The notes under the pieces were generated by a model. The model saw only the letters and a program-made list of their open reading frames with translations, was not told the DNA's origin and did not search any database. Below, piece by piece: positions 1,307 to 27,947 of a stretch of DNA of 36,264 nt. Each line of letters begins with the position of its first letter. Within the stretch, counting starts at the first letter, position 1. Position numbers and translations under genes: made by a program. Origin of the DNA: a virus (Duplodnaviria > Heunggongvirae > Uroviricota > Caudoviricetes). The stretch covers positions 1 through 36,264 of IMG/VR virus record IMGVR_UViG_2778261165_000017; one strand, given 5' to 3'.

Positions 1307-3787
1307 TTAAAAATCAACCGGATTCGGGATCAGTTTTTGCCAGATTGCTGAAACGTATTTTGCCTGGTGACGGGCGTCATCCAGTGCATTGTGGCGCACG
1401 CCTTCGAATGGAATAACGGTTCTGGCATCAAAGTCGATTGTTTTTCCCAGCTCAACGATTGTGCGTACATCGCGATCGTTGTGGTAGCGCCACGGGCAGG
1501 GGATGTCCAGACGTTCGTATGAGGTGCGCAAAATTGCGTTATCGAAAGTTGCACCATTACCCCATACCTGAACGAATTTTTCATCTGAGTATTCGTTGAT
1601 GAACTCCCGAAACCGCGAAAGGGCATCCTTCAGTTTTACCTGGTCTGTTAAAATGGCTGCTCTGGCTTCACTGGACTGCTTCAGCCACCATTCGATGGCT
1701 CCACCGTCAGGAACAGCCCCTGTATTCATTGCGTCAGTCAGACTGATAACGATATAAAATACTGGCCCGATTTCCCCTGTTTGTGGGTCGAAGAAAACCG
1801 CACCAATAACCACGATGGGCGCATTGGTGTTGGCTCCCATCGTCTCAAGGTCGATCATCAGGTGATACCACGTTTTGCTGGTGGACTTATATTTATGATG
1901 GCCGGTCACCACAATTAAGGGATCTGCCGTCTCACCAGTTTCATTATCGCTGGCGTGGTCCTGAGCGCTGCCAGCATTCTCCTTGTGTGGATGTTCAGCG
2001 CCTTCCATTTCCTCCGGATCATTTTCCTGAACTTCAACCTGATTCTCTTCATCGAATGTTTCCTGGTATGTTGCGTCGCCCATCGCCGCGCCACAATCAG
2101 GGCAGTTGCCGCCACCGCTCTGACCGCAGGCGGTGCAGACTTTTTCCGGTTCCTGTTGCGCTACTGGCTCAGGTTGTTTCGTTTCTGGCTCGTTTTGTAA
2201 CGCATTTTGGCTGTTTTGTTCCGCTTTCTGGTCGTTCTGTTCCGATTCTTGCTGGTTCTGGTTTACAGAATCGCGGGTTTCAATCCCCTTCACCCATTTC
2301 GGATCATTCGGGTCGCTAATCCCTGCAACAAATTCTCCGCGAGAGGCAGCAAGCAACTTATCGGCGTCAGGCTGGCTGATATTGGCTGCCTGCATAATTT
2401 TGTTTACTTCGTCAGCGGTAACTTTTACCGGCTCTGGTTGTGCGGTCGTGTCAGATGCACCAGTATTTTGTTGTGAACCTGAGTACGTGCCGTTTTTACG
2501 GGCAAAATATTCTTCTTTCGTGATTTCAGTAGCCCCTGCAGCCAGCGCCTTATTCAGACCAGAAAGTTTGTTTGCACGACCATATTTTTCGCCATCCTTA
2601 TCGGTGAAGAGGAAGTAGAACGGCCCCTCACGCTCTACAGATGGTTCAGTTTCCAGCGCGCTTTCATTTTTTTGGGTATCAGATACTTCAGTTTCCACTG
2701 CATCAGTTTGTGCTGCTGACGGCTGGAGAATATCAGCAGTGCTCTGGTCTGTTTCTTCATCCTCAAACACGCCCTTTGTCGCCAGGTATTCAGTGATGTA
2801 TTTGTTCAGCGCCACGGGATCTTTGTGAATGTCGATCGGACGCTCACGGACAAGGCCAAAAATAGTCTGACGGTCGTAGCGAACGGCATCAGGTTGTTTG
2901 CGCATTGATGCGGAAATACGCTTCCAGTCTTCGCGATCTTTGTCGATAACTTCATTTTTTGCCCAGCGATGGATGCTGCCGTCAATGTTTCCGGCATCAA
3001 TATCACCAGGCCAGAAAGCGTAGGCCAGTTCTTCATCCAGTGTTTTCCATGTCTGCCTGTATTCGCGACGAATGACAGCAGTTACGGAGTCAGTTTTTCC
3101 TGCAGAGTTTTCAGTGCCTTGCCGGTTGACTCTGGCGCGGGCAAGATCGACGACGGAATTATATGCGCCACCTTCTTTGCGCTCCTTTTCCATGCGTTTT
3201 TTACGTTCGAGAAAATACGCCTGAACGTCGGGCCATTTGGCTGTTGGTTTTAAATCACGTCTGGCATCGTTGATGTACTCAATCTGACGCTCTGGATACA
3301 TGGCGTTAATTTCTCTGGTCCGGATAATTGCTTCAGCGAGGTGTCCATCAAAAGTCGTCATCTCGTCATCGCCGAGAAGCCCGCTTGCATTGATGACCAT
3401 ATCCACGGTGATGTTTTCATGTGTACCGAACCTGACAAGGACAGCAGCCCGCTTGTCGTCAGATAACTGATTAAAGTTAACAGTTTCTGTATCCGGTTCA
3501 GGGTCGACCGGAACAAAGGAAGCCGACTCCTCATTCCAGCGGTTTTCCTGCATATATTCGGAATCCCAGGAATCGAGAGCAGGGCGGGCCATGCCGGGTT
3601 TATCCTCGCAGACAAGAAATTTATAAGCACAGTCCTGAGCTTCCGGGTATTGTTCCAGAAATAACCAGCTAAATTTGGCTCTTGCCCGGCGTTCGTCGCC
3701 TGCTTCAATGGCAGTGGCCACAGGTTTAGCGCCTTCTGCTGTTGCCTGTTCGTCCGGAATGGCGGCGCAAATAAAGACTTTACTCAT
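1307..3787 (-). CDS. Large exonuclease, RecE/YdfE-family N-terminal region fused to a DnaQ-like DEDDh 3'-5' exonuclease domain (826 aa)
   Basis: C-terminus carries LMIDLETMG...GAVFF and HNALDDARH motifs typical of DEDDh exonucleases; central CxxC...CxxC cluster (CTACGQSGGGNCPDCG); N-terminus MSKVFICAAIPDE resembles Qin YdfE as recalled. Confidence 0.75.
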   Translation of the reverse strand: MSKVFICAAIPDEQATAEGAKPVATAIEAGDERRARAKFSWLFLEQYPEAQDCAYKFLVCEDKPGMARPALDSWDSEYMQENRWNEESASFVPVDPEPDTETVNFNQLSDDKRAAVLVRFGTHENITVDMVINASGLLGDDEMTTFDGHLAEAIIRTREINAMYPERQIEYINDARRDLKPTAKWPDVQAYFLERKKRMEKERKEGGAYNSVVDLARARVNRQGTENSAGKTDSVTAVIRREYRQTWKTLDEELAYAFWPGDIDAGNIDGSIHRWAKNEVIDKDREDWKRISASMRKQPDAVRYDRQTIFGLVRERPIDIHKDPVALNKYITEYLATKGVFEDEETDQSTADILQPSAAQTDAVETEVSDTQKNESALETEPSVEREGPFYFLFTDKDGEKYGRANKLSGLNKALAAGATEITKEEYFARKNGTYSGSQQNTGASDTTAQPEPVKVTADEVNKIMQAANISQPDADKLLAASRGEFVAGISDPNDPKWVKGIETRDSVNQNQQESEQNDQKAEQNSQNALQNEPETKQPEPVAQQEPEKVCTACGQSGGGNCPDCGAAMGDATYQETFDEENQVEVQENDPEEMEGAEHPHKENAGSAQDHASDNETGETADPLIVVTGHHKYKSTSKTWYHLMIDLETMGANTNAPIVVIGAVFFDPQTGEIGPVFYIVISLTDAMNTGAVPDGGAIEWWLKQSSEARAAILTDQVKLKDALSRFREFINEYSDEKFVQVWGNGATFDNAILRTSYERLDIPCPWRYHNDRDVRTIVELGKTIDFDARTVIPFEGVRHNALDDARHQAKYVSAIWQKLIPNPVDF

Positions 3788-3867
3788 TTTGTTTTAACCT
3801 CATTACAGATTTAAGGGTGAACAAATCCCTGCCATTGCTGGCATATAAAAATGAAATCGGATATTAA

Positions 3868-4071
3868 TTACGGTGCTGTTTTAAGTCCTGCCGGGATTTC
3901 GTTATTGTCCATATGAATAACTTTATCGACCGGATAACAGTTACCGGGAATTTTTTGCTCTGCCGCGGCAGTCATGCATTCTTCCATTGAGTCATGTATG
4001 TCAATAACAAGATCAATCGGTTCACCAGAAACAAAAAAAACAGTCAGAACGAGTACAAATGCCGTATTCAT
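3868..4071 (-). CDS. YdfD-like small membrane protein (67 aa)
   Basis: ATGA start/stop overlap with the upstream dicB-like gene; N-terminal hydrophobic helix (AFVLVLTVFFV); position after dicB matches the Qin dicB operon. Start could alternatively be 4080. Confidence 0.5.
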   Translation of the reverse strand: MNTAFVLVLTVFFVSGEPIDLVIDIHDSMEECMTAAAEQKIPGNCYPVDKVIHMDNNEIPAGLKTAP

Positions 4072-4256
4072 TGCCTGCATCCTGTTTGCATCAGACGTAA
4101 ACGGGCCAGCATCGAAACAATGCATATTTTATTTAGCAGTTCCTGTTCGTGTTTTCTTTTATTAATGGCATCTTCAGTAAATATCTGATTGCTGATAGTG
4201 ACACCAATTTCAAAACAACCTTCAGACGTATTAACGTTTGGTAATAACGTTTCCAT
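4068..4256 (-). CDS. dicB: DicB-like cell-division inhibitor (62 aa)
   Basis: Translation METLLPNVNTSEGCFEIGVTISN...KICIVSMLARLRLM matches DicB as recalled (62 aa); GAGGA RBS 9 nt upstream; lies 175 nt downstream of DicF. Confidence 0.7.
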   Translation of the reverse strand: METLLPNVNTSEGCFEIGVTISNQIFTEDAINKRKHEQELLNKICIVSMLARLRLMQTGCRQ

Positions 4257-4430
4257 TATCGCGTCCTCAACAATGAATTTTGTGATGCGGTGCCTGGTGC
4301 CTCCAGGTGACGTTAACCAGTTAACAATTAACGCCGGATACAGAGAATCCACCCATAACACTGTTTTTAGCTTTAACTGTTCCGCGTGCGCTTAGCCGCA
4401 TTCACCGCATCACAAAATTCACTTTAAAAA

Positions 4431-4483
4431 GGGCGGCAGAGCAGTCACGGAGTAAAACTGATACCGCCAAACGCCACCAGAAA
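4431..4483 (-). ncRNA. dicF: DicF small RNA (53 nt) with U-tail at 4426..4430
   Basis: Minus-strand sequence TTTCTGGTGGCGTTTGGCGGTATCAGTTTTACTCCGTGACTGCTCTGCCGCCC followed by TTTTT matches DicF as recalled, with one difference near the 5' end. Confidence 0.75.
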
Positions 4484-4816
4484 ATTGATAACAGAGGGCG
4501 TTGTAGCGGGGTTGTCACTTAAGCGTATGGTCAACCTGACAACCCGGTGTCCTCAACGGGGAAGGAATAACCCCGCCATACTTACCGCCGCGCCATTTCG
4601 CGGAGTGCCACAACCGGAAGCGCACGGTCGACGAAAATTTAACGACAGGCTATCTATGAACCAGCAACCTCGCCGTGCGCTTTCGCGTTATGCTCTGACT
4701 TTTCAGAGAAATATCCTTTCAGTAAACTGTCAGTGCCGGATGTTCACCCGTGTCCGGCGCACGCACTCCACTTCACCCGTGGAGAACTCCTTAATTACCA
4801 ACCCTCAGGAGGGTGA

Positions 4817-5050
4817 ATGTTAAAATCAACTCTTATTGCTAAATGCCTTTATCAAAATCGCATGGTAAGCAGCATTTCAATAGGCGAGTCTGCAGTTAAA
4901 AGTATTTTCGAAGAGTACTTTCCCGGGCATGATTTTAATAAATGGAATACCAAATTACCGCCAGCAGTTTCAACGCGTATTCTGAAAGCAACTGAAAGAG
5001 CAAGTACAATTCGCGTTAACTATTTCATTAAAGATTTGTGGGATCTTTGA
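4817..5050 (+). CDS. Hypothetical protein (77 aa), opposite strand to the dicB operon
   Basis: Strong RBS AGGAGG 4 nt before ATG; low-GC segment; 3' end overlaps the convergent 135-aa gene by 23 nt. Confidence 0.5.
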   Translation: MLKSTLIAKCLYQNRMVSSISIGESAVKSIFEEYFPGHDFNKWNTKLPPAVSTRILKATERASTIRVNYFIKDLWDL

Positions 5051-16105: not shown

Positions 16106-16181
16106 GGCCCTTTAGCTCAGTGGTGAGAGCGAGCGACTCATAATCGCCAGGTCGCTGGTTCAAATCCAGCAAGGGCCACCA
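16106..16181 (+). tRNA. tRNA with CAT anticodon, Ile2 (lysidine)-like / Met-type
   Basis: Cloverleaf folded by hand; 7-bp acceptor stem GGCCCTT/AAGGGCC; anticodon loop CTCATAA; closely resembles E. coli ileX as recalled; CCA encoded. Confidence 0.85.
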
Positions 16182-16182
16182 A

Positions 16183-16259
16183 CCGCCACTAGCTCATCAG
16201 GAAAGAGCGTCAACCCTTTAAGTTGAGTGTGCGAGGTTCGAGTCCCCGGTGGCGGTCCA
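16183..16259 (+). tRNA. tRNA-like gene with atypical anticodon loop CCTTTAA (anticodon TTT if canonical, C at position 33)
   Basis: Perfect 7-bp acceptor stem CCGCCAC/GTGGCGG, perfect 5-bp anticodon stem, T-loop TTCGAGT with one A-C mismatch in the T stem; CCA encoded. Confidence 0.55.
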
Positions 16260-16261
16260 GT

Positions 16262-16337
<76 letters not shown>

Positions 16338-16340
16338 TAT

Positions 16341-16415
<75 letters not shown>

Positions 16416-26105: not shown

Positions 26106-26810
26106 ATGTCCTCTAATTTTGAACGTTCTCAGCAGACCAAAGTCATGATCTCGTCTGCACCGGTAACGGCAGAAACGCTGAGTTCTGCCAGTTTTCTTGA
26201 ACTGAGCTGTACGATTAAAGAGGTTCAGTTTACCGCCGGGCAGAAACAGGATATTGATGTCACCACGCTGTGTTCTGTTGAGCAGGAAAATATTAACGGT
26301 CTTGGTGCCGCGTCAGAGATTTCCATGTCAGGCAACTTTTATCTGAATGCTGCCCAGAACGCGTTGCGCAGTGCCTATGACAATGACACCACGTATGGCT
26401 TTAAAGTTATTTTTCCGTCAGGCAACGGATTTACCTTTATGGCAGAGGTGCGTCAGCATACCTGGTCTGCAGGAACCAATGGAGTTGTGGCTGCAACGTT
26501 TTCCCTGCGCCTGAAAGGTAAACCTGTACTGACGACAGAGCCACTGAAAGTGAAGGTCGATTTAAACAGCACGCTGCAGGTTTCTGCCGGAGCGAAACTC
26601 GAAATGGTGGTTGAGGCTGCCGGTGGTGTGCCGCCTTATTCTTATGTCTGGAAGAAAGGTGGTTCTCCTGTTTCCGGACAGACGGCGGCAACGTTCAGTA
26701 AGGCATCAGCAGCATCCGGTGATGCCGGTGCGTATACCTGCGAGATTTCTGATTCAGCAAGCCCGGTTAGCAAGGTGACCTCCACTTCCTGCACTGTTAC
26801 CGTCAGTTAA
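26106..26810 (+). CDS. Major tail protein with C-terminal Ig-like domain (234 aa)
   Basis: AGGAG RBS; C-terminal Ig-like region (PPYSYVW...GAYTC); position before the chaperone gene. Confidence 0.8.
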   Translation: MSSNFERSQQTKVMISSAPVTAETLSSASFLELSCTIKEVQFTAGQKQDIDVTTLCSVEQENINGLGAASEISMSGNFYLNAAQNALRSAYDNDTTYGFKVIFPSGNGFTFMAEVRQHTWSAGTNGVVAATFSLRLKGKPVLTTEPLKVKVDLNSTLQVSAGAKLEMVVEAAGGVPPYSYVWKKGGSPVSGQTAATFSKASAASGDAGAYTCEISDSASPVSKVTSTSCTVTVS

Positions 26811-26824
26811 TGAGGATAGATGTG

Positions 26825-27196
26825 ATGACTAAAAATATCCGTAATCTGGCACTGGCAACGATGTCGGGGTTTCGCCATAAAACTGTTGATGTGCCTGAAT
26901 GGGAAGGGGCAACGGTTGTATTACGGGAACCTTCTGCAGAAGCCTGGTTGCGCTGGCAGGAGATCGTTAAAGCAAAAGATGATGAGACACCGTTATCCGT
27001 TGCGGAGCGCGCCCGCCGAAATCTGGAGGCAGATGTTGAACTGTTCATTGATGTTCTGTGTGATACCGGACTGCAACCTGTATTTTCAGAGGATGATCGT
27101 GAACAGGTGATTGCCGTGTATGGCCCGGTGCATGCGCGGCTTCTTCGGCAGTCTCTGGAACTGATCAGTGATGCCGGCGAGGTTAAAAAAAAGTAG
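26825..27196 (+). CDS. Tail assembly chaperone (G-like, 123 aa)
   Basis: GAGGA RBS 7 nt before ATG 26825; ends at a poly-A slippery site. Confidence 0.7.
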   Translation: MTKNIRNLALATMSGFRHKTVDVPEWEGATVVLREPSAEAWLRWQEIVKAKDDETPLSVAERARRNLEADVELFIDVLCDTGLQPVFSEDDREQVIAVYGPVHARLLRQSLELISDAGEVKKK

Positions 27197-27498
27197 CGCT
27201 TCCGGGGATGCGTTTTCTGATGATGCTGGCGCTCAGGATGGGGCGCACATTGTCAGAGTTACGCCGGGAAATGTCCGCATCAGAAATCATGATGTGGGCA
27301 GAATTTGACAGGTTCAGCCCGCTGGGTGATGAGCGGGCTGATATCCGGGCTGCCCAGATAGTTTCTGCGGTTTACGGTGCGCAGGGTGTCAAAGTACCAC
27401 TGAATGATGCGCTTCTTCAGTGGGGGCAAGATTCTGAAGAAAATAAATGCGATGATCCATTTATTGGATTAGAGGTTGCTCTAATGTCTTCATTATAA
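27187..27498 (+). CDS. -1 frame extension giving the G-T fusion (T-like); slippery heptamer A AAA AAG at 27187..27193
   Basis: The -1 frame is open from 27187 to 27498 and has no start or RBS of its own. Confidence 0.65.
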   Translation, partial: KKVALPGMRFLMMLALRMGRTLSELRREMSASEIMMWAEFDRFSPLGDERADIRAAQIVSAVYGAQGVKVPLNDALLQWGQDSEENKCDDPFIGLEVALMSSL

Positions 27499-27556
27499 GA
27501 TAATTTATTAATCGTTTTGAAATTGAATATATTATTCAAACTCAGGAGGGTTAATT

Positions 27557-27898
27557 ATGAGAAATTTAGTGGTGACATTGGCTTGTATATTCTTTATTAG
27601 TGCATGTAAACCATCAGATAATTATGTTATTTCTTTAGGGGAAGACTTAGTTAAAGATAAACTTATTGATCCTGATAGTGCAAAGTTTAATTCTTTTTTC
27701 CATAAGTCAGGTGATTTATATGGCTATGTTTGTGGAGATGTCAATTCAAAAAACACGTTTGGTGGATATACAGGGAAGAAACCATATTTTGTTTATTTGG
27801 AAGTTGTGGACGGAAAAGTTAAGAGTCATGGAACTGTAACAATTGTTAATGACCATGACCCGGGCGGTATGGAAAAATATAAGTTGTTTTGCCAATAA
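27557..27898 (+). CDS. Lipoprotein encoded by an AT-rich insertion (113 aa)
   Basis: Signal peptide with lipobox FISAC; AGGAGGG RBS; markedly AT-rich; followed by its own terminator. Confidence 0.7.
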   Translation: MRNLVVTLACIFFISACKPSDNYVISLGEDLVKDKLIDPDSAKFNSFFHKSGDLYGYVCGDVNSKNTFGGYTGKKPYFVYLEVVDGKVKSHGTVTIVNDHDPGGMEKYKLFCQ

Positions 27899-27910
27899 TT
27901 ATCATCTTAA

Positions 27911-27933
27911 AAAACCGCAGAAGCGGTTTTTTT
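27911..27933 (+). terminator. Intrinsic terminator after the lipoprotein gene
   Basis: A-tract, CCGC-AGAA-GCGG hairpin, then TTTTTTT. Confidence 0.6.
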
Positions 27934-27947
27934 ATGGGTTAAAGTAA

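Follow-up and report, generated by a model that had tools for sequence, protein, structure and literature searches.

Why should a gene for a small lipoprotein stand between the tail chaperone and the tape measure gene of an Escherichia coli prophage? The question is raised by the virus record IMGVR_UViG_2778261165_000017, a stretch of 36,264 nucleotides that was analysed over its whole length and is called the window here. The window represents a lambdoid prophage of E. coli, with a head of the HK97 type and a tail of the lambda type, and the gene in question encodes a protein of 113 residues. That this gene is the cargo of a moron and that its product is an exported lipoprotein are both well supported by the sequence comparisons. 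The protein belongs to a large family whose members adjoin tape measure genes far more often than chance would place them there. As to function, the reading that we favour, and which we hold to be possible though somewhat short of probable, is that an envelope-anchored prophage lipoprotein blocks the entry of superinfecting DNA at the tape-measure or tail-tip stage. As a genetic element the cassette is unremarkable, a moron in a textbook slot; the interest lies in the size of the unannotated family and in its linkage to the tape measure gene.

The cassette and its lipoprotein

The first-pass annotation had described the locus as an AT-rich island, which the GC profile bears out. The GC fraction is 0.31 over positions 27431-27947, against 0.507 for the whole window and 0.51-0.52 in the flanks, and the cassette has the lowest value among all 450-nt windows of the 36 kb (mean 0.507, standard deviation 0.052). 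At third codon positions the GC fraction of the lipoprotein open reading frame (ORF) is 0.248, compared with 0.512 in the tape measure gene.

The boundaries of the cassette were placed by comparison with the cassette-free phage vB_EcoS-640R1 and with a prophage of E. coli whose slot contains the gene of a zinc-ribbon protein instead. Similarity to both sites ends after CTTCAGTGGG (27424/27425), within the T reading frame of the chaperone, and returns at the start codon of the tape measure gene. Empty sites have about 120 bp between these points, in place of the cassette. The AT-rich import includes the 24 terminal codons of T (27425-27498), whose GC fraction is 0.324 as compared with 0.544 in the body of T, and the imported T tail retains the protein motif DPFxGLExAL. 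Because these codons belong to the import, an origin by recombination with a divergent phage of higher AT content is more likely than a simple insertion; the two crossovers would have fallen near the 3' terminus of T and where the tape measure gene begins. The inserted cassette of the first-pass annotation is thus retained, while its start, which had been placed after T, moves upstream to 27425. It can also be noted that the version of the T tail differs with the state of the slot (empty, lipoprotein, zinc ribbon or HK97), the DPFxGLExAL motif being kept in all of them.

We infer an AT-rich donor lineage for the cassette from its sequence, and the homologues that occur in Providencia, Moellerella, Xenorhabdus and Photorhabdus fit such a source. 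Longer members of the family, of 265-290 residues, are found in Providencia, Moellerella and Xenorhabdus on contigs of about 100-112 kb with ParB-like genes (L184; P0073, P0088, P0091, P0098, P0104), which may be plasmids or phage-plasmids.

A census of 5,426 complete E. coli genomes identified 902 with the G/T/H module. The cassette is present in 18 of these, as two alleles (100% and ~94% identity). The states of the slot were followed in a spread sample of 60 E. coli records, of which about 54 have the empty arrangement with a short span of 795-798 bp; in phage 640R1, 46 bp separate the T stop codon from the tape measure start. It follows that the cassette does interrupt T and H genes that are otherwise contiguous, as had been proposed. 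In the sense of Juhala and Hendrix, a moron is extra DNA between genes that are adjacent in relatives, with a composition unlike that of its neighbours, and both properties are found here. The definition further calls for a promoter and a terminator of the element's own, which are considered below, and for expression from the repressed prophage.

Two further states occur once each in the sample. E. coli AH19B041 carries in the slot, within a near-identical tail module and with the same breakpoints, an unrelated 113-aa zinc-ribbon protein having two N-terminal transmembrane helices and a CxxC...CxxC pattern (L185:757-1098). E. coli MEI2B-1023 has an IS66-family element just past the tape measure start, with a truncated ORF (L186:1946-3597). 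Together with gp15 of HK97, three unrelated envelope proteins have therefore been found in one slot: the lipoprotein, the zinc-ribbon membrane protein and gp15. On these sequences the T-H slot is a cassette-exchange site, the cargo of which has so far consisted of predicted envelope proteins in every case. Since the slot is empty in most related modules (about 98% of the E. coli prophages with this tail module), the gene is accessory and not structural. The possibility that the product is a virion component was considered and rejected for this reason and because export of the protein is predicted.

The predicted lipoprotein of 113 residues reported in the first-pass annotation is encoded by a real ORF and has a canonical lipobox. 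The N-terminus reads MRNLVVTLACIFFISAC, with predicted cleavage before the cysteine that precedes KPS; the initial M-R-N is followed by a hydrophobic core and by I14-S15-A16-C17, and I-S-A-C17 matches the lipobox pattern [LVI][ASTVI][GAS]C, the assignment to the Sec/Lgt/Lsp/Lol pathway being pattern-based. The signal peptide would comprise residues 1-16, the codon of Cys17 occupies 27605-27607, and the mature protein of 97 residues has an isoelectric point of 6.3. In close homologues (n = 11), A16, C17, K18, P19 and S20 are invariant while C10 is not, for which reason C17 is predicted to be the lipidated residue. In the Lol sorting system of E. coli, an Asp at position +2 directs a lipoprotein to the inner membrane and other residues direct it to the outer membrane. 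With Lys18 at this position, the protein is predicted to be sorted to the outer membrane. The two E. coli alleles differ by 14 synonymous and 6 non-synonymous codon changes, 3 of the latter in the signal peptide, which indicates purifying selection.

Searches of Pfam, NCBIfam, PADLOC and the PDB, by sequence or by profile, gave no matches for the lipoprotein, and none to the Cor, Llp, Ltp, Bor or TraT families or to catalogued defence systems; BFVD returned uncharacterised family members only. The best family assignment is PHROG 2320 (function unknown, E = 2.9e-32), with six more PHROGs, also of unknown function, matching more weakly. An exhaustive profile search recovered 8,461 cluster representatives at E <= 1e-3 and 287 at E <= 1e-10, and in the sources used no member is named beyond "hypothetical" or "lipoprotein". 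Among 149 representatives, almost all N-termini have a lipobox, a signal peptide or a single transmembrane anchor, lipobox or signal peptide being found in most.

Residues D38, P39, S41, F44, G60, N63, K65, N66, G69, Y71 and G73 are conserved in at least 90% of members. C59 is invariant and C112 is conserved in at least 90%, which suggests a disulfide. Both cysteines are absent from the actinobacterial members, where another pair, in the first helix and strand 3, suggests an alternative disulfide. The AlphaFold2 model is a small alpha+beta roll with a confident pLDDT (predicted local distance difference test) score of 87.9, and its best structural neighbours are alpha+beta rolls of the VirB8/TraE/DotI-like and cystatin/NTF2-like types.

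Linkage of the family to tape measure genes

Two scans of IMG/VR yielded 160 loci that contain a member of the family. In 80 of them the gene directly adjoins an ORF of 600 residues or more, which lies downstream on the same strand in 70, upstream in 6 and divergent in 4; the large ORF is two genes away in 6 more loci. These large neighbours form 16 clusters with less than 40% identity to one another, and each representative tested is a tape measure protein. The adjacency is seen in phages of Proteobacteria and of Actinobacteria, on either strand. Dereplication of the family proteins at 70% identity leaves 77 clusters, 33 of which adjoin a tape measure gene, against a random-gene expectation of about 3%, our rough estimate for a genome of some 60 genes. 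The adjacency is far above chance. In 21 further loci the tape measure gene lies within 6 kb, mostly with the family member in the slot between K and I, while 20 of the remaining loci are too near the end of the DNA to judge. A limited full-text search of the literature gave no description of this linkage.

The arrangement of the window, directly upstream of the tape measure gene, is shared by gp20 of phage ES18 (annotated as a "possible moron"), by two Klebsiella phages and by the Citrobacter/Enterobacter/Salmonella prophage (48-52% identity). In Gordonia phage ThankyouJordi (L015:3477-3806), Paracoccus phage Pkon1 (L019:2752-3282) and a metagenomic prophage (L181:6001-6405), the gene lies where the tape measure gene begins, but on the opposite strand, and the Paracoccus protein has an extra N-terminal peptidoglycan-binding domain. 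Other members are located between K and I, as in Fraca and Pseudomonas AUS531phi, between ogr and int in the P2-like SEN4/5, or, in a satellite-like island, next to genes for an AAA_15 ATPase and an integrase; in Mycobacterium abscessus prophages the neighbours of the gene are the lysis genes and a polymorphic toxin-immunity cassette. The weaker family matches were confirmed by a hidden Markov model of the family. On the family tree, a rough neighbour-joining tree without bootstrap, the slot classes interleave, which points to repeated relocation within the tail-tip module.

Expression signals and neighbouring genes

The features of the locus are collected in Table 1. The ribosome-binding site (RBS) of the gene's own, noted in the first-pass annotation, is present and strong. 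It is covered, however, in the predicted fold of the 58-nt leader, where UUUUGA (27515-27520) pairs with UCAGGA (27542-27547) and thereby takes up the Shine-Dalgarno (SD) sequence AGGAGG. With four U followed by GA facing the SD sequence, the geometry resembles that of fourU RNA thermometers, and the anti-SD stem is retained in the 94% allele. The inner palindrome TTGAATA-TAT-TATTCAA was considered as an operator and rejected, since it is disrupted in that allele. RBS sequestration as a control common to the family was likewise rejected, the mean pairing probability being 0.56 compared with 0.55 in shuffled sequences. Rfam gave no matches for the leader or the 3' region.

A promoter of the cassette's own, which the first-pass annotation had implied, did not emerge: a consensus scan of the + strand upstream finds no sigma-70-like site, and the best promoter-like match by eye, TTGCTC-17 nt-GATAAT (8/12), falls under the scan threshold. 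Expression in the lysogen can consequently only be presumed. The terminator attributed to the cassette is confirmed as a hairpin with a T-run (-11.7 to -13.1 kcal/mol, z = -3.76), which a simple terminator scan missed, but not as specifically the cassette's own. A homologous terminator (AACCGC-loop-GCGGT7-8) is found ahead of the tape measure gene where the slot is empty, as well as in HK97, in ES18 and in the Citrobacter prophage; the element therefore goes with the junction and is not peculiar to the cassette.

Table 1. Positions of the cassette, its signals and the adjoining tail genes in the window
Feature	Positions	Strand	Basis or remark
Major tail protein with Ig domain	26106-26810		upstream of G
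Tail assembly chaperone G	26810-27196	+	Pfam PF06222, E = 2.8e-58
T reading frame of chaperone	27208-27498	+	Pfam PF06223, E = 1.4e-18
Whole exchanged cassette (moron), 523 bp	27425-27947	+	alignments with empty site and alternative-cargo site; GC
5' leader hairpin	27507-27555	+	RNA fold -15.6 kcal/mol, z = -4.99, 0/200 shuffles as stable
RBS AGGAGG	27544-27549	+	7 nt before ATG
Lipoprotein gene, 113 aa	27557-27898	+	ORF list
Intrinsic terminator-like hairpin and T-run, AAAAAACCGC-AGAA-GCGGTTTTTTT	27909-27933	+	before tape measure gene
Tape measure protein gene, 1079 aa	27948-31187	+	ORF list; RefSeq annotation of identical prophage region

Direct reading of the sequence shows a -1 slippery site, A AAA AAG, at 27187-27193, at the end of G, which joins the G and T frames. 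A shift at this point would continue into the T frame as ...EVKKKVALPGMRFLMM..., in the manner of lambda G/GT. Proteins homologous to the tape measure protein of the window contain TMP_3, HK97_TLTM and Tape_meas_lam_C domains. An identical tail region is found in strain PK8241, in a prophage adjoining tRNA-Ser and hya (100% identity, NZ_CP080139.1). When window positions 1-27400 are compared with NZ_CP080139.1, the integrase gene lies some 1,060 bp nearer to the cassette in the window, which therefore comes from a variant of the prophage that differs by an indel in its early or head region. Four tRNA genes (Met/Ile-type CAT, Lys, Thr and Gly) are clustered at 16106-16415, on the upstream side of the lysis genes, the first being annotated as tRNA-Ile in PK8241 by RefSeq. 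GC is next lowest (0.38-0.40) at about 3750-5000, in the early-left part of the window close to dicB-like genes, and this stretch may be another piece of foreign cargo.

Candidate functions and known systems

In the mechanism that we favour, the mature protein of 97 residues would be tethered through Cys17 to the inner leaflet of the outer membrane, facing the periplasm, and would be produced both in the lysogen and when the late genes are transcribed. It would act on the incoming siphophage at the step where the tail tip, together with the ejected tape measure protein, passes through periplasm and cell wall and opens the DNA channel. The net effect would be superinfection exclusion after adsorption, and the gene would be kept linked to the tail module whose relatives its product excludes. 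Four observations suggest such a function and make the exclusion or host-interaction role put forward in the first-pass annotation plausible: the presence of HK97 gp15 in the same slot, the position of llp beside the gene of pb5, the precedent of Ltp, and the positional enrichment next to tape measure genes. The fusions of the family domain to SPOR and to a peptidoglycan-binding domain add a setting in the cell wall.

Several findings weigh against an entry-blocking function. About a third to a half of the phage-borne members lie away from the tape measure gene, and the T-H slot accepts unrelated cargo, so the adjacency may in part reflect a permissive site of recombination. The motifs DPxSAxF and VNAKNxFGGYxG are conserved across phyla, which would suit a conserved ligand such as the cell wall better. 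To these must be added the lack of a PADLOC match, the covered RBS and the failure of the + strand scan to find a promoter.

A broader version was also considered, in which the whole family is a pan-phylum entry-blocking module carried by siphophages of Proteobacteria and Actinobacteria, linked to tape measure genes so that blocker and target travel together in mosaic recombination. A secreted domain anchored to wall or membrane would here act on a conserved step in the passage, mediated by the tape measure protein, across cell wall and periplasm. We regard this version as rather doubtful.

The lipoprotein could instead be an envelope or cell-wall factor that is not aimed at phage entry, the place beside the tape measure gene being a permissive site only. 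It might be associated with peptidoglycan, act as inhibitor or decoy of hydrolases (bacteriocins, type VI amidases, lysozymes) or provide a Bor-like resistance to stress or serum, and in these ways raise the fitness of the lysogen. The fusion of the family domain to SPOR and to peptidoglycan-binding domains in some members is consistent with this, as are the cross-phylum motifs discussed above, the modelled cystatin/NTF2-like fold, which is used by protease inhibitors, the toxin-immunity and lysis neighbourhood in M. abscessus and the unrelated cargo of the slot. Permissiveness alone, on the other hand, explains poorly an association with at least 16 tape measure clusters, on both strands and both sides and with switches of slot. 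Pfam gives no match to lysozyme-inhibitor, Bor or TraT families, and the occurrence of the family in soil and water bacteria makes a role specific to animal hosts unlikely for the family as a whole. Overall, we judge a pure envelope function to be unlikely.

Receptor jamming of the kind known for T5 Llp and Cor, in which the lipoprotein would bind the periplasmic face of its phage's own receptor and alter the surface loops so that adsorption is lost, would agree with the Llp-like anatomy of a small, predicted outer-membrane lipoprotein with a probable disulfide inside a tail cluster. The members located between K and I, near the tip protein J, would agree with it as well. It is nevertheless quite unlikely, because Pfam and PDB searches reveal no sequence relation to Llp or Cor, it is the tape measure gene rather than a receptor-binding gene with which the family is chiefly linked, and an outer-membrane TonB-dependent transporter cannot be the partner of the actinobacterial, transmembrane-anchored and SPOR-fused members.

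A further alternative is an accessory of the lytic cycle, transcribed solely with the late tail operon, that would stop progeny from injecting into dying cells or debris or would tune the envelope before lysis. The gene lies on the strand of the late operon, with no terminator after T and no detected promoter of its own, and Llp is made during lytic growth (PMC9586334). The opposite orientation to the tail operon in the Gordonia phage, the Paracoccus phage and the metagenomic prophage argues against such a role, and so does the placement in classical lysogenic cargo sites by the integrase in P2-like phages and the satellite-like island. The classifiable phage records with family matches, which we take to be all temperate or prophage-derived, also count against a purely lytic function. 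This alternative is regarded as quite unlikely too. Finally, a functionless passenger, a hitch-hiking remnant in a slot that tolerates DNA, would be in line with the rarity of the cassette in E. coli and the lack of an assigned function, but is very improbable in view of the intact ORF and strong RBS, the excess of synonymous changes with just 3 non-synonymous ones in the mature part, the presence of the exact protein on 275 contigs and of a close variant on 698, and the conservation of the family in thousands of clusters.

If the block at the tape-measure stage is real, the lipoprotein would open a way to study a step of siphophage infection that is poorly understood, and part of the strain-to-strain variation in phage resistance of E. 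coli, Klebsiella, Salmonella, Pseudomonas and mycobacteria would be explained, which would be relevant to phage therapy. Adjacency to tail genes could then be used in the discovery of exclusion genes. The pan-phylum version, if true, would make this the first exclusion family common to such distant hosts and would yield a general positional rule for the discovery of exclusion genes. If the protein instead binds the cell wall or inhibits wall hydrolases, the family would represent a new envelope domain.

Among the known systems, the closest in genomic position is gp15 of HK97, the element for which the term "moron" was coined; gp15 resides in the inner membrane and causes superinfection exclusion in a manner determined by the tail region of the entering phage (PMC3594210). 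The cassette of the window occupies the same slot, between T and the tape measure gene of an HK97-like tail operon, and is likewise a short foreign accessory cassette, followed by a terminator, that encodes an envelope protein. The products differ, gp15 being an inner-membrane protein of 62 residues and the window protein a 113-residue lipoprotein predicted to reside in the outer membrane. Homology between them was rejected, BLASTP giving no alignment at E <= 100. An exclusion phenotype has been demonstrated for gp15, whereas for the window protein a similar role is proposed by analogy.

The T5 Llp protein is a periplasm-facing outer-membrane lipoprotein with a disulfide, and its gene adjoins that of its tail partner pb5; Llp and Cor lipoproteins exclude phages of the same receptor class (PMC9586334). 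With Llp and with Cor of phi80, N15, HK022 and T1, the window protein shares the character of a small phage lipoprotein with a disulfide, here a predicted one, encoded in a tail-gene neighbourhood (PMC9586334). The mature Llp has 61 residues, whereas the mature window protein is a 97-residue alpha+beta roll, as modelled, and its gene neighbours the tape measure gene and not a receptor-binding gene. Unlike Llp and Cor, to which no homology is detectable, the family also occurs where a TonB-dependent receptor is absent.

The mechanism proposed for the window protein corresponds to that of Ltp of Streptococcus thermophilus phage TP-J34, which, in the part of PMC3952083 that cites Bebeacua 2013, targets the tape measure protein. 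Unlike Ltp, the window protein has no Pfam match, and nothing links the two. Ltp is made up of repeats of the helix-turn-helix-like kind, and its gene belongs to the lysogeny module rather than adjoining the tape measure gene. The Bor and TraT type of lipoprotein comprises moron-encoded outer-membrane lipoproteins of lambdoid prophages that alter the surface of the lysogen, as does Bor of lambda (PMC3594210). The window protein differs from these in having no Pfam match and in belonging to a family that is present in phages of environmental bacteria, which argues against serum resistance as its general role. The bor gene adjoins the lysis genes, a different slot. The "tail assembly interference" system Tai was considered as well and set aside, since it concerns other proteins.

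In terms of structure, the model of the window protein most resembles the VirB8/TraE/DotI-like and cystatin/NTF2-like proteins, in which, as in the AlphaFold2 prediction, a single helix packs on a curved antiparallel sheet. Several of these structural neighbours are periplasmic parts of DNA-transfer machines.

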